From the NCBI GenBank assembly GCA_036563485.1, contig DATCMI010000001.1, positions 516,938-580,937 on the forward strand: a stretch of DNA of 64,000 bases, given 5' to 3'. The position numbers were made by a program, and so were the translations under genes. Origin of the DNA: Sphingomicrobium sp. GTDB lineage: Bacteria; Pseudomonadota; Alphaproteobacteria; Sphingomonadales; Sphingomonadaceae. Below are positions 5,439 to 35,561 of the stretch, piece by piece; within the stretch, counting starts at the first letter, position 1; every line of letters starts with the position of its first letter. The notes beneath the pieces are model-generated. The model did no database searches and was not told where the DNA came from. It saw only the letters and a list, made by a program, of their open reading frames with translations.

Positions 5439-5893
5439 GCGGCCCAGCGCTTCATCAGGAAATAGCGGGCACCGCCGAGCGGGTGGTCGGGAATCTGCCC
5501 GGCAATTGAATACCCGAGCCGCTCGTAAAAGCCTCGCGCCTGGAAGCTGAAGGTGTCTAGCCACGCGCCGATGCAGCCCCGCGCCCGCGACTCTTCCTCC
5601 GCGCGGCTTAGGAGGCGGGCGCCGAGGCCGTGCCGGCGATGTGCATCCGGCACGAACAGGAGCTCGATGGCCAGCCAGTCATAAAGCGTGTTGCCCCACA
5701 GGCCGCCCAGGCAGGCGCCGGCTTGGTCGCGGAGGGCGATGCAAAGCGGCCGAGCGACCGCCGGCGCCGCATTGTCCGAGTTGAATTCTATGAGGCCGCT
5801 GAGGATTGCTTGGCGAAGGTCTTGGCTCGGAGCGTCGACGATCTCGATCGTGCCGCTCCAGTAAGGCGTGGTGGGCGGTGCTCCAGCGGTCAC
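5435..5893 (-). CDS. GNAT family N-acetyltransferase
   Basis: RRHGLGARLLSRAEEESRARGC ... FYERLGY (acetyl-CoA binding motif A). It overlaps the fabI stop by 4 nt, so it belongs to the fabI transcription unit. Confidence 0.85.
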   Translation of the reverse strand: MTAGAPPTTPYWSGTIEIVDAPSQDLRQAILSGLIEFNSDNAAPAVARPLCIALRDQAGACLGGLWGNTLYDWLAIELLFVPDAHRRHGLGARLLSRAEEESRARGCIGAWLDTFSFQARGFYERLGYSIAGQIPDHPLGGARYFLMKRWAA

Positions 5894-6693
5894 ACGGTTG
5901 CGATGTCGGGCGCGTCTTCGGCTTTCATGCCGACGACATTGTAGCCGGCGTCGACGTGGTGGATCTCGCCCGTGACTCCGCTGGCGAGATCGCTCAGCAG
6001 GTAGAGCCCGGCACCGCCGACATCCTCGATCGTGACATTGCGGCGGAGCGGTGAGTTAAACTCGTTCCACTTCATGATGTAGCGGAAGTCGCCGATGCCG
6101 CTCGCCGCCAGAGTTTTGATCGGGCCGGCAGAGATCGCGTTGACGCGGATGTTCTCGGGGCCGAGGTCCATGGCCAGATATTTGACGCTCGCCTCCAGGC
6201 CCGCCTTGGCGACGCCCATCACATTGTAGTGCGGGATCACCTTTTCGGCGCCGTAGTAGGTCAGCGTCAGGATCGAGCCGCCGTCGGCCATCAGCTTGCG
6301 TGCGCGCTGCGCGACCGCGACGAAGCTGTAGACCGAGATGTTCATGCTCATCAGGAAATTGTCCATCGACGTGTCGACGAACTTCCCGCGCAGCTCATTC
6401 TTGTCGGAAAAGCCGATTGCATGGACGACGAAGTCGAGCCTGCCCCAACGGTCGCGGATTTCGTCGAACGCCTTGTCGAGCGCGTCCATGCTGCTGACGT
6501 CGCAATCGATCAGGAAATCGGAGCCAAGCTCCGAAGCGAGCGGCCGCACCCGCTTTTCCAGCGCTTCGCCCTGGTAGGAGAATGCGAGTTCGGCACCCTG
6601 GCCGGCGAGCGCCCGCGCAATACCCCAGGCGAGCGATCGGTCGTTCGCCAGGCCCATGATCAGCCCACGCTTGCCTTCCATCAACTGGCTCAA
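5890..6693 (-). CDS. fabI: Enoyl-[acyl-carrier-protein] reductase (NADH)
   Basis: GKRGLIMGLANDRSLAWGIA, YYGAEKVIPHYNVMGVAKAGLEASVKYLA and RVNAISAGPIKTLAASGI are classic FabI motifs. Confidence 0.96.
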   Translation of the reverse strand: MSQLMEGKRGLIMGLANDRSLAWGIARALAGQGAELAFSYQGEALEKRVRPLASELGSDFLIDCDVSSMDALDKAFDEIRDRWGRLDFVVHAIGFSDKNELRGKFVDTSMDNFLMSMNISVYSFVAVAQRARKLMADGGSILTLTYYGAEKVIPHYNVMGVAKAGLEASVKYLAMDLGPENIRVNAISAGPIKTLAASGIGDFRYIMKWNEFNSPLRRNVTIEDVGGAGLYLLSDLASGVTGEIHHVDAGYNVVGMKAEDAPDIATV

Positions 6694-7735: not shown

Positions 7736-8701
7736 CTAAACCCCAAGCGATGCTCGCGGGTTGCCGCCGCCGTTCCAGTTCTCGGCAAAACGCTGAAGCT
7801 CGGCGTCGTCGGCCGGCAGCTCAATTTCGAGGCTAACCAACTGGTCGCCGCGCTTGCCATCCTTGGCCGTGAAGCCGCGGCCTTTAAGGCGGAGGACCTT
7901 GCCGGAACTGGTGCCTTTGGGAACGGTCAGCATCACCGGACCTTCGGGCGTCGGCACCTTCACCTTGGCGCCGAGCACGGCTTCCTTGAGAGTCACGGGC
8001 AAGTTCAGGCGAATGTTGGTTCCGTCGCGGGTGAAGAAGCGGTGAGGCGCAATTTCGATCGTGACGATTGCGTCGCCGCGTCCGCCGGGCCCGTCCTGCC
8101 CTTTGCCCGACAGCCGGATCTTGGTGCCGTCCTCCAGCCCCTGCGGAAGCTTCAGGTCGATCGTCTTGCCGTCGCCGAGCGTGATCCGCTGCGGCTTGAG
8201 GGCCACGGCATCCTCGAACGGCACGCGCAGGCGATAAGCGATGTCGGCGCCCTTTTGCGGCGGCTGCGCGCGCTGCCGGAACCCGCTGAACGGTCCGCCG
8301 CGGCTTCGTCCACCAGCGCCGCCGCCGCCGCCGAACAGGCCCTCGAAGAGGTCACTGAGGTCTGCGGTCTCGGCACCGCCGAAGTTGAAATTCTCGAACC
8401 CTTCAGGCGCCGCCCCGGGCCGCTGTCCGCCACCCGGGGAATAGCCGCCGAAGCCGCCGCCGAACGGCATCTTGGGATTGCCGTCCTCGTCGATTTCGCC
8501 CCGATCGTAGCGCGCGCGTTTATCCTTGTCGGACAGCAGGTCGTAGGCGGCGGTCACTTCGCCAAACCGCTTGGCGGCGTCGGGATTATCTTTGTTGCGG
8601 TCGGGGTGAAGCTGCTTGGCGAGGTTCCGGTAAGCCTTCTTGATCTCCGCCTCGCTGGCGCCGCGCTTCAGCCCCAAACGCTGGTAGAGGTCTAGTGCCA
8701 T
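7736..8701 (-). CDS. DnaJ-family co-chaperone without zinc finger (CbpA-like curved-DNA-binding protein)
   Basis: J domain LYQRLGLKRGASEAEIKKAYRNLAKQLHPDRN, a Gly-rich linker, then DnaJ C-terminal substrate-binding repeats with no CxxCxGxG motifs. Confidence 0.85.
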   Translation of the reverse strand: MALDLYQRLGLKRGASEAEIKKAYRNLAKQLHPDRNKDNPDAAKRFGEVTAAYDLLSDKDKRARYDRGEIDEDGNPKMPFGGGFGGYSPGGGQRPGAAPEGFENFNFGGAETADLSDLFEGLFGGGGGAGGRSRGGPFSGFRQRAQPPQKGADIAYRLRVPFEDAVALKPQRITLGDGKTIDLKLPQGLEDGTKIRLSGKGQDGPGGRGDAIVTIEIAPHRFFTRDGTNIRLNLPVTLKEAVLGAKVKVPTPEGPVMLTVPKGTSSGKVLRLKGRGFTAKDGKRGDQLVSLEIELPADDAELQRFAENWNGGGNPRASLGV

Positions 8702-8781
8702 GCTGCTCCCATGCCGTAAGCTTTCCCTGCTGACCAGATGGGTTGCGGCACCGAGCGCTCCAAGCCTAAGCGGCGGTCGAC

Positions 8782-9360
8782 ATGGCTACCGACCCTTTCC
8801 AGCTGTTCGACGAGTGGTTCGCGGAAGCGCGCACAAGCGAGCCGAACGACCCAGAAGCCATGGCTTTCGCGACCGCCGACGAACGCGGCCGCCCCTCGGT
8901 GCGAATGGTCCTCCTCCGCCACGTCGGCGCCGACGGCTTCGGCTTTTTCACCAACCTCGACAGCCGCAAGGGGCGCGAGCTCGACGCCAACCCCTACGGT
9001 GCGCTCGCGCTCCACTGGAAATCCCTACGCCGGCAGGTGCGCGCGGAAGGCCCGGTGCGCCAGGTCTCAGACGAAGAAGCCGACGCATATTTCGCGTCGC
9101 GCAGCCGGGATTCGCGCATCGGCTCGTGGGCCTCGGACCAGTCCCGCCCGCTCGACAGCCGCGACACGTTCGAGCGGCGCATCTCCGAAGTCCAGCAGCG
9201 TTTCGAAGGCGCCGACGTGCCGCGGCCGCCGCGCTGGTCGGGCTTCCTGCTGATGCCGGAGAAGATCGAGTTCTGGAGCGACCGCGCGCATCGCCTGCAT
9301 GAGCGCCGGCTGTTCACCCGCCATGGCGACGGCTGGTCGGAAGGCTTGCTCTACCCGTGA
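8782..9360 (+). CDS. pdxH: Pyridoxamine 5'-phosphate oxidase
   Basis: PNDPEAMAFATADERGRPSVRMVLL, FFTNLDSRKGREL, EFWSDRAHRLHER and LYP at the C-terminus. Confidence 0.95.
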   Translation: MATDPFQLFDEWFAEARTSEPNDPEAMAFATADERGRPSVRMVLLRHVGADGFGFFTNLDSRKGRELDANPYGALALHWKSLRRQVRAEGPVRQVSDEEADAYFASRSRDSRIGSWASDQSRPLDSRDTFERRISEVQQRFEGADVPRPPRWSGFLLMPEKIEFWSDRAHRLHERRLFTRHGDGWSEGLLYP

Positions 9361-30545: not shown

Positions 30546-31690
30546 GTGTCGCGGATATACGGCTAGTCATCGGCACCAGGCCCGAGGCGATCAAGCTCGA
30601 GCCGCTCGCCAAGGCGTTGGCGGCCGCCGGCCTCCCGCCGTCGATCATCTTCACCGGCCAGCACGCAACGTTGCGGGCGGAAGATCATGGTCTCGAGGCG
30701 TTCGCGAGCATCCATCTCGGCTGCTCGGGCCAGCGGGACCCGCATCGTCATGTGCGCGCGGTCACGGCGGCAATGCTGGCGAAATTCGCGCCGCGCCCAG
30801 ATCTCGTCATCGTCCAAGGCGACACCTCGACTGCTCTTGGCGGGGCCCTTGCGGCGTTCACAGCGGGCGTTCCGGTGGCGCATGTCGAGGCCGGACTTCG
30901 CACACACGACCCGCAGCTGCCTTGGCCTGAGGAAGAATATCGGGTTGCGATCGACGCTAAGGCGCACCTGCTGTTCGCCCCGACCGCCGGATCGGCCGCC
31001 AACCTCCGGGCTGAAGGCGTTCCGGGATCAATCCATGAAACCGGCAATATTGGGATCGACGCCCTGCTAGCCGCGGAAAGACGCCTGCCGCCGCTCGGCC
31101 TTTGCGAGCGCACGAAGCCGCGTCTTCTCGTCACCTGCCACCGCCGGGAAAGCTGGGGCGAGGGCCTGCAGTCGATCGCCGCGGCCGTGGTTGCCCTCAC
31201 CTCGGACGGCGGCTGCGACGCACAGTTCATCCTTCACCCGAACCCCGCGGTTCGGGCGCGCATGGAGGCACTGCTTCGCGACCGCTCCGGAATCGAGCTC
31301 CTTGAGCCATGCGCCCATCTTGAGCTGCTCCGCCTCCTTCGCGATGCCGACCTGGTGCTCAGCGATTCCGGCGGCATCCAGGAGGAAGCGCCGGCGCTCG
31401 GCGTCCCCTTGCTGGTGCTTCGCGACAAGACCGAGCGGCCGGAAGGTGTCGCGTCGGGCAATTGCCGGCTTGTCGGCACCTCGACTGAGCGGATAGTCGG
31501 GGAAGCGCGCACGCTGCTCCGCGATCCGCTCGTCCGCGCCGCCATGAGCCGCCGCGCCCTCCCCTACGGCGACGGCCGAGCCGCGCCCCGCATAGCGGCG
31601 ATCATTCGCGAATGGCTGACCGCCGGCAGTCCCGCCCAGGCCTATGTCGGAGCGTTGATCGAGAAAATGAATGCCGCGAAGCGGTGGTGA
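30546..31690 (+). CDS. wecB: UDP-N-acetylglucosamine 2-epimerase (non-hydrolysing), with a start-proximal frame disruption
   Basis: The conserved N-terminus IRLVIGTRPEAIKLEPLAKAL is in frame from about 30557. That frame has no ATG/GTG/TTG between the TAG at 30503 and the TTG at 30617. A GTG at 30546 with an AGGGGGA SD is 2 nt out of frame. Downstream motifs include HVEAGLRT, DSGGIQEEAPALGVPLLVLR and TERPEGV. Confidence 0.85.
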
Positions 31691-31760
31691 CCCCTACGGG
31701 ACTCGAACCCGTGTTTTCGCCGTGAGAGGGCGACGTCCTAGACCGCTAGACGAAGGGGCC
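31685..31760 (-). tRNA. tRNA-Glu (anticodon CUC)
   Basis: Reverse complement GGCCCCTTCGTCTAGCGGTCTAGGACGTCGCCCTCTCACGGCGAAAACACGGGTTCGAGTCCCGTAGGGGTCACCA folds as a cloverleaf with anticodon loop CTCTCAC and an encoded CCA. It overlaps the wecB stop by 6 nt. Confidence 0.93.
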
Positions 31761-31838
31761 ACTTGCGCGGAAGGGCGGCCATATGTGGGCTGATCGACCG
31801 CTAGTCAATCGCGCCGTCGCCGCCCCTCCGCTGCTTGA

Positions 31839-33224
31839 TCAATGCAGCTTGAGCCTCACGAAGGCCATCGCGCCGGTCGGATTGTGGCCGCCATAGGCAG
31901 GGGCCAATGCGTCGGGCACGAAGTTTACCGAGAACAGCCCGCCGGCACCGATCGACAGATGGTCGGCAATGCGGAAGTCGCGGACCGCGCCCAGCGACAC
32001 CTTGCCGACGCGATAGGCAGGGCCGTGCTCGTCGGCGGCGACCAACTCGCGATTCTCCGTGACCTCGCCGCGGCCGAACATTGTCCATGGTCCGTGCTTG
32101 ACCGACGCTTCCGCGACGAAGGCATCGTCCTTCAGCGCCTCACCATGGTGCTCGATGGTCTTGCGGCCCCAGGCGAGCGTACCCGCCAGCTTCCAGCCGG
32201 GCGCCACCTCGCGCGCATAGAGCAGGCTGGCCGACCACCGCTTTTGGTCGACCCCCGGCTCCAGCTGTTCCGGGTCGACGAACTTGCCCCAGCTTCCTTG
32301 CAGCGACAGCTCGTTGGTCGGGTTCCACGACAGCCGCACCGCGGTCGAGTCGAGCTTGCCGGTCTCGATGTCGTAGCGATGCTCGTCGGGCTCGCGGCCA
32401 TTGAAGCGGCTCACTTCCAGCTTCACCCTATCCACCACGATGCCGGCGGTCAGGACGCCGAAACTGATGTGCGTCGAATCGAGCCAGTGGTGGCTGATCG
32501 GCGCTTCCGGCGAATCCATGATCGCCTCGCGGTGCATGAATGCCGGCGGCCCGAAGGCCGACTCGCCGGGGAGTCCGCCGTAAAGGAAGATGCTGCTCTT
32601 GCGCCCGATGTTCTGCGACACGGATGCGGACAGCTCCATAAATAGGTCGTGCGGGTGCTGGCGGTCGATCAGCCGGTCCTCGCCATTCGCCGTCTCGCCG
32701 CTGGCAAGGAGCAGCGGATAGCCGCTCTTCCCCATCAAGGGATCGGGGCTGAGGCTCGCCCGCAGCTGCAGTGTTCCATTGCCGAGCGGCCGCCGGGCCA
32801 TGCCCATCAGCATGCCGCTGGCGAACAGCTTCTCGTCACCACGCGGACCGGACTGACGGTCGGCGACCAGGTTGAGGACGCCGTGTCCCATCAGCGTCCA
32901 GTCGCCGGACGTGGTCATCGCGCCCATGTGCTCGCTGTTGTCAGGCTGCCAGGCAGTGCCCGAAGCTTCGCGCTCCATTGGGTAGCCGCCAAGCGCGCCG
33001 CTCATCTGGTGAGAGGCATGAGCTCCTTCGGCCGTGCCATGGTTCATCTTGTGATGGTCCATTGGGGTGGCGGGGGTTTGCTGCTGCGGCTGCGGCTGCG
33101 GGGCAGCTTGGGGCGGCATGGTCATGTCAGGCGTTTGCTGGTGCTGGTGCTGGTGCTGCGCCAGCGCGGGCGCGGCGGTCACCAGCGCGACAGCGCTGAC
33201 CGCCGTACGGAATACGGTTTTCAC
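31839..33224 (-). CDS. Secreted, probably outer-membrane beta-barrel protein with a His/Gln/Pro/Met-rich N-terminal region
   Basis: Signal peptide MKTVFRTAVSAVALVTAAPALA, then QHQHQHQQTPDMTMPPQAAPQPQPQQQTPATPMDHHKMNHGTAEGAHASHQM, then about 380 aa with alternating beta-strand-like pattern ending in AFVRLKLH. Confidence 0.75.
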   Translation of the reverse strand: MKTVFRTAVSAVALVTAAPALAQHQHQHQQTPDMTMPPQAAPQPQPQQQTPATPMDHHKMNHGTAEGAHASHQMSGALGGYPMEREASGTAWQPDNSEHMGAMTTSGDWTLMGHGVLNLVADRQSGPRGDEKLFASGMLMGMARRPLGNGTLQLRASLSPDPLMGKSGYPLLLASGETANGEDRLIDRQHPHDLFMELSASVSQNIGRKSSIFLYGGLPGESAFGPPAFMHREAIMDSPEAPISHHWLDSTHISFGVLTAGIVVDRVKLEVSRFNGREPDEHRYDIETGKLDSTAVRLSWNPTNELSLQGSWGKFVDPEQLEPGVDQKRWSASLLYAREVAPGWKLAGTLAWGRKTIEHHGEALKDDAFVAEASVKHGPWTMFGRGEVTENRELVAADEHGPAYRVGKVSLGAVRDFRIADHLSIGAGGLFSVNFVPDALAPAYGGHNPTGAMAFVRLKLH

Positions 33225-33284
33225 GGTTTCTTCTCCGGGGATCGCCGGCGCCGCGGTTAAGGGCGGCGCCGGCGCGAGATTCAG

Positions 33285-33500
33285 CTAGTGGGCGCCGTGT
33301 TCGGCATGCTCGTCATGGCCGGCTTCATGCTTGGCCATGTCCTTGCAGCAGGCGCAGCAATCCATCTTCTTCTGCTCGCCTTTGCCGTCCACCGGCTTGT
33401 GCTGCATGTGCTGCATGTGGCCCTGCGGCTGCGGAGCCGGTGCCGGCGCCGCCTGCGGTGCTGCGGCGGCAAGGGCGACGGATGCGATCATGATGATCAT
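33285..33500 (-). CDS. Small secreted His/Met/Cys-rich protein (putative metal-binding; CCxCC motif)
   Basis: MIIMIASVALAAAAPQAAPAPAPQPQGHMQHMQHKPVDGKGEQKKMDCCACCKDMAKHEAGHDEHAEHGAH. AGGAGA SD 7 nt upstream of the ATG. Confidence 0.75.
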   Translation of the reverse strand: MIIMIASVALAAAAPQAAPAPAPQPQGHMQHMQHKPVDGKGEQKKMDCCACCKDMAKHEAGHDEHAEHGAH

Positions 33501-33539
33501 TTTGAATTCTCCTGAAAGTGCGTGGATCCTGGTCGACGG

Positions 33540-33866
33540 TCAGGAGCGCTTCGGAGGTGGCGTGGCGGTTTCAGGCGCGAGGCTTGGCAGCTGTTCGGCA
33601 GTTTCCGGCCGCTCGGGCGTGCAGACCAGCGCCATGCCGGCGCTCGGCCGGGCATCTGCGGCAGGCAACGCCGCGGCGCAGGCCATGGTGCATTCGGCGA
33701 AGCCGCGATGCTGGTCCTTGGGTGCCTTGCGGTCCGGGCAATGCTCCATCGGCATCGCCGAAGCATTGTCCGCATGGTGCGGCACCGCGGCCGGTGCCGC
33801 TGACATCCCGAGGGGCATCAGCAGCACCGAAACCAGCAGCAGCAGTTGCGCCAGAACGGCTTTCAT
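33540..33866 (-). CDS. Small secreted Cys/His/Met-containing protein
   Basis: MKAVLAQLLLLVSVLLMPLGMSAAPAAVPHHADNASAMPMEHCPDRKAPKDQHRGFAECTMACAAALP...VCTPE. Internal ATG at 33866, 17 nt after the upstream stop. Confidence 0.65.
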   Translation of the reverse strand: MKAVLAQLLLLVSVLLMPLGMSAAPAAVPHHADNASAMPMEHCPDRKAPKDQHRGFAECTMACAAALPAADARPSAGMALVCTPERPETAEQLPSLAPETATPPPKRS

Positions 33867-33883
33867 TTGAACAGCATAGCCGT

Positions 33884-34642
33884 TCACATCGACACCATCC
33901 AGAAGGCCATGGCGATCATCGCCAGATTTTCCGTCAGCGAGATGAAGCCCAAGGGCACGTTGCTCGATCCGCCGACGCACGCGCATTTGAGCTCGCGCTT
34001 GTCGATGTAGACGGCCTTGATCACGGACACTGCGCCGATCGTCCCGATGAATAAGGCGATCGCCGACGACAGCCAGTGAAGCACGTCGGCAATCATCAGG
34101 ATGCCGGCGGCCGCTTCGGCGAACGCGTAGACGTAACCGTACGGGACCCAGCGCTTGGCGAGCAGGTCGTAGTTCAGGAACATGGTCGAGAAAGTCTCGA
34201 TGTTCTGGAGCTTGAGCATCGCCAAGACGGTCATGCCGAAGGCGACGAACCACTGGAGCGTCCGCCGATTGAACAGCTGTCCGTCGACCGCAAAGGTGCC
34301 GGCGATCGCCATCAGCGCGCTGAGCCCGAACAGCACCAGCACCGGCGTGTAGCTGGTCGCCTTGGGATCGGCGACGCGCTTGCCAAGGAAGCGGCGGAGG
34401 TCGTCATAGCCGCCGACCCGCTGGCCGGCGATGAACACCTGGGGCGTCGTCGCGACCCCGTGCTCGGCCTTGAACGCGTCGGTTTCCTCACGCGTGCGGA
34501 GATGATGGTCTTCGACTTCGTAGCCGGATCGGCGCAGCAGGTCGCGCGCCTTCAGTCCGTACGGGCAGACATGGTGATCCATCACCATGCGATAGAGGAC
34601 CGCCTTCTTCACTGCGGTCGGATGATTGGTCATGTCCGACAT
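33884..34642 (-). CDS. Glutaredoxin-like domain (CPYG) fused to a MauE/DoxX-type membrane domain
   Basis: N-terminal AVLYRMVMDHHVCPYGLKARDLL ... TTPQVFIAGQRVGGYDDL (Grx fold, monothiol CPYG). C-terminal four to five TM segments with KCACVGG, the CxC motif typical of the MauE family. ATG at 34642 follows AGGAG. Confidence 0.8.
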   Translation of the reverse strand: MSDMTNHPTAVKKAVLYRMVMDHHVCPYGLKARDLLRRSGYEVEDHHLRTREETDAFKAEHGVATTPQVFIAGQRVGGYDDLRRFLGKRVADPKATSYTPVLVLFGLSALMAIAGTFAVDGQLFNRRTLQWFVAFGMTVLAMLKLQNIETFSTMFLNYDLLAKRWVPYGYVYAFAEAAAGILMIADVLHWLSSAIALFIGTIGAVSVIKAVYIDKRELKCACVGGSSNVPLGFISLTENLAMIAMAFWMVSM

Positions 34643-34721
34643 CTCACAACTCCTGGTGAACTCGTCGGAAGGCCATATAGGTTCCGTACCATGGTACGGT
34701 GTCAAGAGCCCCGTTTTCGGA

Positions 34722-35030
34722 TCAGCCGTCCCGGTCGCGTTCGCTCAAGAAACGCATCAGCTCGGCAAGGGTCGATTCCATCTGGTCCTGCATCTGGCTG
34801 ACCAGTTCGTTCTCGCGCATGCCGACATGGTCGAGCGGCTTTGAATAGCTGTCCGAAAAGGCGTGAAGGTCGTCGCGGTCGAACACGCCGCGGGCGACCA
34901 GCTTGGCGAGGATCACCAACAAGCCATTCGTATTCGCGATGGTGCCGGCGACCAGCGCCTCGTCGACCATGGACAGCCTCTTGTCGCTGTCCTCGACCTC
35001 TTCTTCAGGAGTAATCATCGGTTCGATCAT
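34722..35030 (-). CDS. Hypothetical acidic protein
   Basis: 102-aa ORF with a GAGGGA SD. No recognisable motif. Confidence 0.5.
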   Translation of the reverse strand: MIEPMITPEEEVEDSDKRLSMVDEALVAGTIANTNGLLVILAKLVARGVFDRDDLHAFSDSYSKPLDHVGMRENELVSQMQDQMESTLAELMRFLSERDRDG

Positions 35031-35063
35031 GCATCCCTCTACGCGCCGCGCAAGCTTAAGCTC

Positions 35064-35561
35064 CTATGGCGCGACATATTCGCTGAGCACCGCCCACGCC
35101 GAGGATTTCTCGGCCAGCGGCCGGGTGTTCGCGGCGCTCGAAGACGGGAGGTCGATGAGCCGCAATCCGCTCGGCGGGACGCCGATCAGGCGCCGCCCCG
35201 CAGTGGCCGCCGTCGTCCCGTTGAAGGCGATTGCGCGCAGGTCCGGATAATCGCGGAGCAGATGGTCCACCCGGTTGTGCTCGGCTTCGCGGATCGCCTG
35301 GTCGAGGCTGCCCGGCCGCTTGGCGGCGGCGATCACGTCCCACAGGCCGATCCGGCGCCGGGCGAGCACCGCCAGCCGCTCGTCATAGCGAAGGCCGTGA
35401 AGTTCCTCCCCGATCGCATTGCCGAGGAGCCGCCAGAACTGGTTGGTCAGATGCGCGTAGTAGCGCTGGGCGTTGAGGGAGGCATCGCCCGGCAAGCTGC
35501 CGAGGATGAACAGGCGCGCGTCGCTCCGAGCGATCGGCGGCAACCCCACTTTGACGCTCAA
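35064..35561 (-). CDS. DNA-deoxyinosine glycosylase (uracil-DNA glycosylase superfamily)
   Basis: ARLFILGSLPGDASLNAQRYYAHLTNQFWRLLG and FNGTTAA ... PSSSAAN. TTG start at 35561 or GTG at 35549. Confidence 0.8.
   Translation of the reverse strand: MSVKVGLPPIARSDARLFILGSLPGDASLNAQRYYAHLTNQFWRLLGNAIGEELHGLRYDERLAVLARRRIGLWDVIAAAKRPGSLDQAIREAEHNRVDHLLRDYPDLRAIAFNGTTAATAGRRLIGVPPSGLRLIDLPSSSAANTRPLAEKSSAWAVLSEYVAP

Follow-up and report, generated by a model that had tools for sequence, protein, structure and literature searches.

The CutF protein of Rhodobacter capsulatus is a small exported protein of the DUF2946 family, with a CxxxC motif and a proline-rich C-terminus; copper delays its export, and this delay opens a stem-loop of the mRNA in which the ribosome-binding site of the following gene is concealed. 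Most leaders of this CutF-like type lie less than 100 nt from the gene that follows (Ozturk et al. 2023, PMC9973294). In Sinorhizobium meliloti, SmGrx3 (SMa0280) is an atypical glutaredoxin (Grx) that combines a CPYG site with a MauE domain, has low deglutathionylation activity as a recombinant protein and, in the words of a review, has a function that "still remains to be elucidated" (PMC6315971). PcoB is an outer-membrane protein of 12 strands with a flexible tail able to bind metal (PcoB structure, PMC9210255). We studied a 64,000-nt stretch of DNA (the window) from Sphingomicrobium sp. (assembly GCA_036563485.1, contig DATCMI010000001.1, positions 516,938 to 580,937), in which an operon of four genes on the minus strand, named A, B, C and D, brings together elements of known kinds: a MerR-type promoter, an SmGrx3, a CutF-like leader and an outer-membrane barrel. 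We lean, with moderate confidence, towards reading this operon as a composite envelope response to copper-type stress (Cu or Ag, possibly Au) with control at two levels, transcription and translation.

The four open reading frames (ORFs) had the coordinates given in a preliminary description made from the sequence of the window alone, with gaps derived from these coordinates of 17 nt (A/B), 39 nt (B/C) and 60 nt (C/D). All the motifs quoted there were present in the translations: HH, MEHC, ECTMAC and VCTPE in B, GHMQHMQH and DCCACCKDM in C, and QHQHQHQQ and MDHHKMNH in D. Homologues of all four were found elsewhere (at least 8,000 word-index matches each for A and D, 457 for B, and C-like ORFs at 26 fetched loci); therefore A, B, C and D are true genes rather than ORFs arising by chance in a GC-rich genome.

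In the preliminary description the ligand-type residues, those of the 108-aa product of B included, pointed to soft-metal handling. By analogy with CutF, B is most likely a translational sensor/leader for C and D instead of a stable metal carrier or chaperone. Its product has a hydrophobic N-terminus (LLLLVSVLLMPLGM), in which a Lys precedes the hydrophobic stretch LLLLVSVLLMPLGMSAAPA, followed by HH, MPMEHCPD, a CxxxC motif (ECTMAC) and a C-terminal PETATPPPKRS, the three consecutive prolines (PPP) being encoded at 33560-33552. Of the features by which Ozturk et al. (2023) recognized CutF-like proteins, B has a length below 150 aa, a Cys motif, a PP within the last 15 residues and a same-strand gene, here C, shortly downstream (39 nt). 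As to the N-terminal signal peptide that also belongs to the definition, the hydrophobic segment of B may be one, but it was unusually conserved in the family and could be an uncleaved anchor. None of the 457 homologues had a Pfam domain; in 42 diverse members the first Cys, P104 and P105 were invariant and the second Cys and P103 were conserved in at least 90%, and among distant members only the two Cys and the prolines were conserved. Seven of these 42 relatives weakly matched DUF2946 (best E = 0.0011) and no other family recurred, which would make the relationship between B and DUF2946 distant at best.

A stem-loop joins the end of B to the start of C. Its 5' arm, CUCCUGA (33546-33540), includes the last codon and the stop codon of B, and its 3' arm, UCAGGAG (33515-33509), holds the Shine-Dalgarno sequence of C, at a distance of 8 nt from the ATG. 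The helix comprises 7 bp in the window, a length reached by 0 of 500 shuffles. The hairpin belonged to the minimum-energy fold at all 23 Sphingomonadales-type B junctions compared, with inner stem sequences that differ, and RNAalifold returned a 6-bp outer stem with 2 covarying pairs (e.g., CGUGA/UCACG in loci L024 and L025 versus CCUGA/UCAGG in the others; L numbers denote related loci). In the alignment of these junctions 89.6% of the cells pair, as against 24-49% with the partner slid, and 11 cells carry compensatory changes, which 0/500 shuffles reach. The single-sequence fold of the junction including its coding flanks was non-significant (z = -0.5), so that the conserved hairpin is evident from the comparative analysis only. 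The PPP codons end 6 nt (two codons) 5' of the stop codon of B, and a ribosome that paused there would sit on the 5' arm of the stem-loop.

The other level of control would be exerted upstream of A. In the 80 nt inspected we found, in this order, cTTGACA, CCGTACCATGGTACGG, AAC and CTATAT, that is, a -35 box TTGACA (34705-34700), a perfect 16-bp palindrome (34699-34684) and a -10-like box CTATAT (34680-34675), the spacer between the two boxes being 19-20 bp; a consensus scan of 31600-35100 gave no promoter having a 16-18 bp spacer. A regular expression found the palindrome nine times in 1.2 Mb of related loci, eight of them directly 5' of this operon type and all eight with the same -35 and -10 boxes. 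Equivalent promoter architecture preceded the operon in L001, L002, L007, L010, L013, L015 and L026. Of 72 metagenomic Grx-MauE genes, 48 likewise have the palindrome upstream, and this operator (TTGACTCTGTACCATGCTACGG) also stands in front of S. meliloti SMa0280 (L174 6542-7789; pSymA ~157.6-158.8 kb), whose neighbour on pSymA of strain 1021 is a divergent MerR-family gene of 134 aa. No such promoter was evident by eye 5' of the B-D units of Brevundimonas and Caulobacter. As to the regulator, a divergent MerR gene adjoins Grx-MauE in 48 of 61 related loci. In the window the operator is intact despite the absence of a MerR gene: phmmer found neither a MerR-family gene nor a P-type ATPase in the 64 kb, in agreement with the preliminary description, which also reported CusCBA and multicopper oxidase as missing, two systems not searched for here.

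The regulator adjoining the operon in the relatives bears on the metal that is sensed. Its best NCBIfam model was the mercury MerR, with 106-112 bits, below the cut-off of 150.85. Aligned with Tn501 MerR, its DNA-binding domain is closely similar and the Hg ligand Cys82 is replaced by Arg, while the remaining two cysteines align without gaps with C112 and C120 of CueR, in a C-x7-C loop. Because there are only two ligand cysteines, spaced as in CueR, the alignment suggests a monovalent-metal sensor having a mer-like DNA-binding domain. We therefore regard as very unlikely that Hg(II) or some other thiophilic divalent metal is what the cassette responds to, with A and DUF4396 (a membrane protein found in place of A in some relatives, see below) as MerT-like carriers. 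Such a role would account for the MerR model as best match, for the DNA-binding domain near that of Tn501 MerR, for the half-sites CCGTAC/GTACGG, which we take to match the mer operator, and for cysteines in or near the membrane helices of A and DUF4396, but it agrees poorly with a sub-cut-off score, an Arg at position 82, CueR-type loop spacing and the true CueR found with CopA at L003 (see below); moreover, no merA-, merP- or merT-type gene was present in the Pfam-annotated or record-annotated neighbourhoods.

Comparison of gene neighbourhoods showed that in Sphingomicrobium-like genomes B-C-D occupy a single chromosomal position, preceded by the gene of a uracil-DNA glycosylase and by a hypothetical gene of ~100 aa; in the window, L002 and L003, D is followed by a gene for an epimerase. 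What lies ahead of B differs among loci: the window has Grx-MauE, L001 and L002 have DUF4396, accompanied by MerR or not, and L005 and L006 have nothing. L003 presents a same-strand run of CopA, a 98-aa protein, a cation-efflux protein, CueR, B, C and D; this CueR scored 176 bits (cut-off 147), and copA has an inverted repeat of the CueR type in front of it. A plasmid of Sphingobium baderi carries a divergent MerR gene followed by the exact A-B-C-D order and, downstream, by genes for DUF305, ICMT, DUF2933 and a P-type ATPase, and on a Pontibacter plasmid (L008) a copper ATPase lies near the D homologue. We link B-C-D to copper because of the L003 run, the cupredoxin fusions of D relatives described below and the P-type ATPases of these plasmids; together with the MerR-type promoter, they gave comparative support to the soft-metal (Cu/Ag-type) role that had been proposed from the His, Met and Cys residues. 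Between the copper ATPase and the D homologue of L008 we noted a 151-aa lipoprotein (8340-8795) extremely rich in Met, with MMxxMM repeats, which takes the position held by B and C in Alphaproteobacteria.

The DUF4396 gene stands in place of Grx-MauE behind the same promoter in L001 (6831-7319), L002 (4772-5308), L010 and L013. It encodes a membrane protein with a His-rich N-terminus, an LHCLTGCVIGE motif and a C-terminal LKACH, and in the one paper mentioning DUF4396 it is listed as flanking a cluster of heavy-metal resistance genes.

The operon is two joined modules, a Grx-MauE cassette and B-C-D, and not one co-conserved unit, because A occurs mostly without B or D and B-C-D mostly without A. 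In a set of 80 metagenomic Grx-MauE loci, 6 of 42 had D after Grx-MauE and 13 of 55 had a B-like gene there; MerR plus Grx-MauE is also found as a stand-alone pair, and most B-C-D loci lack A or have DUF4396 or CopA in its place. The earlier view of the four genes as a single system was hence not borne out, A being tied to the divergent MerR gene in the first place. Locus L023 keeps, at ~5840-5995, the MerR-type promoter (TTGACC-TCGTACCATGGTACGG) and an N-terminally truncated Grx-MauE remnant (...FKAVHIGKRELNCACVGGSRNVPLG) just before B, which indicates that gene A has been gained and lost at this slot. Two other loci (L122, 5295-5881; L130, ~1100-1860) contain Grx-MauE, a B-like leader and a C-like Cys-rich protein and no D, so the pair of leader and small protein can exist without the barrel.

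Gene A, with an AGGAG ribosome-binding site 6 nt 5' of its ATG, matched Pfam MauE with 45.1 bits (cut-off 27, E 1.5e-11) and Pfam Glutaredoxin with 29.9 bits (cut-off 22.9, E 6.3e-7), which confirmed the proposed fusion; the same profile searches left B, C and D without a match. Its N-terminal glutaredoxin domain, probably cytoplasmic, has a monothiol CPYG site (VCPYG) and is followed by a MauE membrane domain of about five helices. In the family the CPYG cysteine and a K-C-A-C-V-G-G motif in the loop preceding the last helix are invariant. The AlphaFold2 (AF2) model of A had a mean predicted local distance difference test (pLDDT) of 71, with five membrane helices and low confidence in the CxC loop; Foldseek matched only the Grx domain of this model, the membrane part having no solved relative. 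Since some relatives end in a DUF305 domain, the C-terminus of A would lie in the periplasm, and the helix count would place the CxC loop on the cytoplasmic side with the Grx domain, in a region of low model confidence. A is 72.5% identical over its full length (residues 1-251) to SMa0280 of S. meliloti 1021 pSymA and is, judged by sequence, the orthologue of SmGrx3. The Grx-MauE family is very large and was found on 303 plasmid records. A merR mutant of S. meliloti CCNWSX0020, possibly but not necessarily in the merR adjacent to SMa0280, has been reported as copper-sensitive.

The preliminary description suggested that A maintains the redox state of the Cys-rich periplasmic proteins encoded with it. 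In such a mechanism, Grx-MauE would relay the reducing power of cytoplasmic glutathione across the membrane, so that periplasmic B and C stay reduced, in the manner of DsbD, CcdA or ScsB, in keeping with the presence of both domains, the invariant CPYG cysteine and CxC motif, the low deglutathionylation activity of SmGrx3, and an A-B-C-D or A-B-C order that recurs in several genera. The co-occurrence counts given above tell against it, since a protein that occurs mostly apart from B-C-D cannot have their redox upkeep as its general role; moreover, DUF4396, which has no redox domain, substitutes for A behind the same promoter, and the CxC loop would face the cytoplasm in the low-confidence part of the model. 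We consider redox maintenance of B and C quite unlikely as the function of the operon.

The AF2 model of D, built on an alignment of 55 sequences (pLDDT 88, predicted template modelling score 0.82), consists of a signal-peptide helix, a disordered stretch up to about residue 70, a structured conserved segment and an all-beta barrel of 18-19 strands, in line with the description of D as secreted and barrel-like. Short turns and longer loops alternate in the model, as expected if both termini are periplasmic, and the tail would then lie in the periplasm. Sequence searches with D gave no Pfam match (E up to 1), no NCBIfam match and no PDB match (E up to 10), and CopB, CusF, CopC, PCuAC and the general porin families were rejected for B, C and D alike, as none had a Pfam or NCBIfam match. 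Identification of D with CopB/PcoB (PF05275) in particular was rejected: the hidden Markov model did not match at E up to 1, and the model has 18-19 strands versus 12. The copper-induced 'omp' of S. meliloti CCNWSX0020 was discarded as a relative, no D homologue being found on Sinorhizobium plasmids (the chromosome was not searched).

The D family comprises at least 3,041 clusters (50% identity) and has members in no fewer than 549 species. Its proteins are annotated only as "hypothetical" and range over the Alphaproteobacteria, with Sphingomonadales, Caulobacterales, Hyphomonadaceae, Nitrobacter and Rhizomicrobium, loci labelled Gamma- or Betaproteobacteria, and one member in Bacteroidota. 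The motifs DRQHPHD, AFMHR, APIxHHWxDSTHI and FNGREPDE are near-invariant and most of them lie in predicted long loops. His and Met together had a median of 19% in the tail versus 7.5% in the barrel (187 members). In some relatives the tail is replaced by cupredoxin, cytochrome c, thioredoxin (Trx)-like or Cys-repeat domains. Relatives with such metal/redox N-terminal modules were P0261, P0322, P0242, P0249, P0304, P0311, P0346, P0280, P0325, P0334 and P0297, the modules including sulfocyanin-like domains, a thioredoxin-like CPCS domain and a CxxC...CxxC module; P0261 has a Cytochrome_CBB3 domain and P0322 a CxxCH motif recognized by eye.

Foldseek matched the D model to generic 16-18-strand porins (E about 1e-10, TM score 0.45-0.6, identity 8-14%), without a PcoB-like match among the top matches. 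These matches, and the heterogeneous neighbours of D in distant taxa, are what would be expected if D were a porin of general or structural function whose low-complexity tail is incidental, and if the small ORFs were unrelated neighbours. We regard such a lack of joint function as highly improbable, given that D is conserved in a way not usual for porins (close relatives are 70-85% identical, with many near-invariant His, Asp and Arg in loops), that B-C-D or B-D adjacency recurs across orders, that the covarying stem-loop ties B to the next gene, and that the D N-terminus has repeatedly been swapped for metal/redox domains.

A bolder possibility, which we hold only tentatively and on balance doubt, is that the D family is not a passive porin but a widespread and so far unrecognised class of metal-specific outer-membrane machine, in which the histidine cluster of the barrel would bind copper and swap metal or electrons with the periplasmic module, its synthesis being set by the CutF-type sensor. 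D would then act either as a gated channel for copper or as a copper oxidoreductase of the outer membrane, similar in principle to the Cyc2 cytochrome-porins. Cyc2-like fused cytochrome-porins are characterized by an N-terminal CxxCH haem motif and a porin barrel; the tail of D in the window has no cysteine and hence no such motif. If the machine hypothesis were true, the orphan glutaredoxin SmGrx3 would be a metal-stress protein under MerR control.

Gene C encodes a low-complexity protein with a signal peptide, an HMQHMQH segment, the Cys cluster DCCACCKDM and a His-rich tail. In 25 of the 26 loci with C-like ORFs these were on the same strand as D and upstream of it, usually between B and D. 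All the relatives have a signal peptide, CC-x(1-2)-CC and a His-rich C-terminus in common and are otherwise very variable.

Starting from the gene structure, folds, promoter architecture, stem-loop covariation and neighbourhood statistics observed directly, the two-level copper-type response would proceed as follows. A metal-bound cytoplasmic activator of the MerR family, encoded outside the window, would switch on transcription of the operon. B would be exported during its synthesis and, as in CutF, metal bound to CxxxC outside the cytoplasm would slow this export; the slowed ribosome would linger at PPP and melt the stem-loop formed by the B stop codon and the ribosome-binding site of C, thereby allowing translation of C and probably of D. 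C may be a secreted Cys/His/Met-rich metal buffer or shuttle. D would be an outer-membrane channel whose His/Met tail captures metal and feeds a conserved histidine-lined passage, letting metal leave the periplasm, a role traditionally given to PcoB/CopB. A is presumably a separately acquired inner-membrane cassette for thiol or metal handling, and the source of the promoter.

Efflux through D is an assumption in this scheme, because copper import is now argued for PcoB, the nearest analogue of D in function. The same argument would favour copper acquisition, with D as an uptake channel that supplies cuproenzymes or periplasmic chaperones and B as a CruR-like leader tuning an importer. TonB-dependent importers and PCuAC chaperones are likewise found behind CutF-like leaders, and CruR acts in the opposite sense to CutF (PMC9973294); D or B-D alone are found outside metal islands in many genomes, and in L005, L006 and L089 there is a cytochrome c gene no more than ~0.7 kb downstream of D. 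MerR/CueR-type activator promoters, however, usually serve responses to excess metal, and B-C-D run together with the exporters CopA and cation-efflux protein plus CueR, or lie in plasmid regions encoding P-type ATPases, so that we find acquisition unlikely.

Several results besides the case of PcoB weigh against the two-level copper-type response. The upstream neighbours of ~56 distant D loci were heterogeneous, without a metal-island signal (a P-type ATPase with a heavy-metal-binding domain at 4 of ~56, an S9 peptidase at 9 and MgtE at 5), and, because the neighbours of distant D genes are mostly unrelated to metals, the copper inference is limited in generality. Beside the operon in the window itself phmmer found no MerR gene, copper ATPase or efflux pump, and the regulator of the relatives scored best with a mercury model. 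With respect to the leader, B itself did not match DUF2946 (PF11162) at E up to 1, the proline motif of CutF alone gave no stalling in a reporter and CutF-like leaders are not all isofunctional (PMC9973294); in Caulobacterales, where B directly precedes D, the helix between stop codon and ribosome-binding site is weak (3-5 bp). Finally, an SmGrx3 mutant showed no phenotype, either free-living or symbiotic, in a review that mentions no metal-stress test (PMC6315971).

Table 1 Positions of the operon features in the window
Feature	Position	Strand	Details and basis
MerR-type promoter/operator	34675..34705	-	Read from the sequence 5' of A
Gene A	33884-34642	-	252 aa
A/B hairpin UGAACGGC-UAU-GCUGUUCA	33868..33886	-	Fold; includes the stop codon of A and ends 2 nt before the ATG of B
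Gene B	33540-33866	-	108 aa
Stem-loop over the ribosome-binding site of C	33509..33546	-	Folds and covariation
Gene C	33285-33500	-	71 aa
C/D hairpin, GC-rich, 12 bp, no U-tract	33243..33274	-	Fold; followed by the GGAG ribosome-binding site of D
Gene D	31839-33224	-	461 aa
Putative signal peptide of D, residues 1-22, GTG start	33159..33224	-	Cleavage site (between ...APALA and QH) by eye; model helix at residues 2-16
Disordered His/Met/Gln/Pro-rich tail of D, residues 23-74	33003..33158	-	Mean pLDDT 35-55 per 10-residue block, residues 11-70
Conserved N-terminal segment MxRExSGTxWxPD and ~18-strand barrel of D	31839..33002	-	AF2 model

The other two junctions of the operon also fold stably. 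The A/B junction (33855-33900) reached -16.4 kcal/mol (z = -3.3, 2/200 shuffles as stable) and the C/D junction (33215-33300) -37.1 kcal/mol (z = -3.5, 0/200 shuffles as stable); these hairpins may set coupling or relative expression of the genes. Inverted repeats rich in GC were also noticed by eye after the stop codon of B in the B-D junctions of Brevundimonas. An Rfam scan of the operon gave no match apart from the adjoining tRNA.

This tRNA-Glu(CTC) gene (31685-31760, minus strand) is located 78 nt 3' of the stop codon of D and directly adjoins the epimerase ORF, which is convergent, at its 3' end. tRNA genes are common integration sites; the synteny among the Sphingomicrobium relatives argues against a recent insertion of a variable module at this one. 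On the other side, an ORF at 34722-35030 (minus strand) encodes an acidic hypothetical protein of 102 aa without a family match, kept beside the uracil-DNA glycosylase gene in nine loci; since it is upstream of the MerR-type promoter, it is outside the operon. Searching the window by phmmer with the cation-efflux protein of L003 revealed two ORFs of that family, at ~44.4 kb and ~10.3 kb, each more than 10 kb from the operon.

The preliminary description did not recognize the combination as a described system. This needs qualification for two of the components, since A corresponds to SmGrx3 and CutF-like leaders were described in 2023, and it stands for the rest: literature searches (DUF4396; MauE and copper; MauE/DoxX and MerR; Sphingomonas copper outer-membrane proteins) retrieved neither the D family, the C family nor the combination, nor a CutF-like leader with a target of this class, nor any paper tying SmGrx3 to metal regulation or to a MerR-type metal link. 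D could prove to be a new class. Copper passage across the outer membrane is among the least settled steps of bacterial copper homeostasis, the main known routes being PcoB/CopB, with a disputed direction, and OprC; the D family, large, with no Pfam or NCBIfam model and with a swappable periplasmic metal/redox module, is a concrete candidate for a missing outer-membrane component. The locus would extend the CutF mechanism to a new target class and offers a clean covarying stem-loop. For SmGrx3 it leads to the hypothesis of induction by Cu, Ag or Au through the divergent MerR, in a genetically tractable organism.

Compared with known systems, the promoter shares with those of CueR and MerR (PcopA, Pmer) a -35 and a -10 box 19-20 bp apart and a palindromic operator inside the spacer; it departs from them in that the regulator of the relatives is apparently a hybrid, with a mer-like DNA-binding domain and operator and a two-cysteine sensing loop, and in that the window has no regulator gene. 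The two-domain architecture, the CPYG site and the MerR-type promoter of A are those of SmGrx3, but SMa0280 forms a two-gene unit with its divergent MerR gene and has no B-C-D downstream, whereas in the window three genes follow and the MerR gene is missing. With the leaders CutF, CopL and CruR, B has in common a length below 150 aa, a hydrophobic N-terminus that may serve as an export signal, a CxxxC motif, a PPP within the last 15 residues and a stem-loop masking the downstream ribosome-binding site. Unlike in CutF, the stop codon of B itself serves in the 5' arm of the stem and the hydrophobic segment is unusually conserved; and, whereas the targets of CutF-like leaders are a multicopper oxidase, an RND (resistance-nodulation-division) pump or a TonB-dependent receptor, those of B would be a Cys-rich small protein and an uncharacterised outer-membrane barrel. 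D resembles PcoB/CopB as an outer-membrane beta-barrel with a flexible N-terminal tail able to bind metal and with copper-responsive contexts, and differs in having a conserved histidine cluster where PcoB has an acidic funnel and in being unpaired with a multicopper oxidase. With porins (Omp32, BpsOmp38, OmpF, OprP and the Occ family) D shares the fold, and two D relatives weakly match the BBP2 porin family; what sets D apart from them is its long periplasmic tail, the conserved segment before the barrel and a loop conservation that is more enzyme-like.

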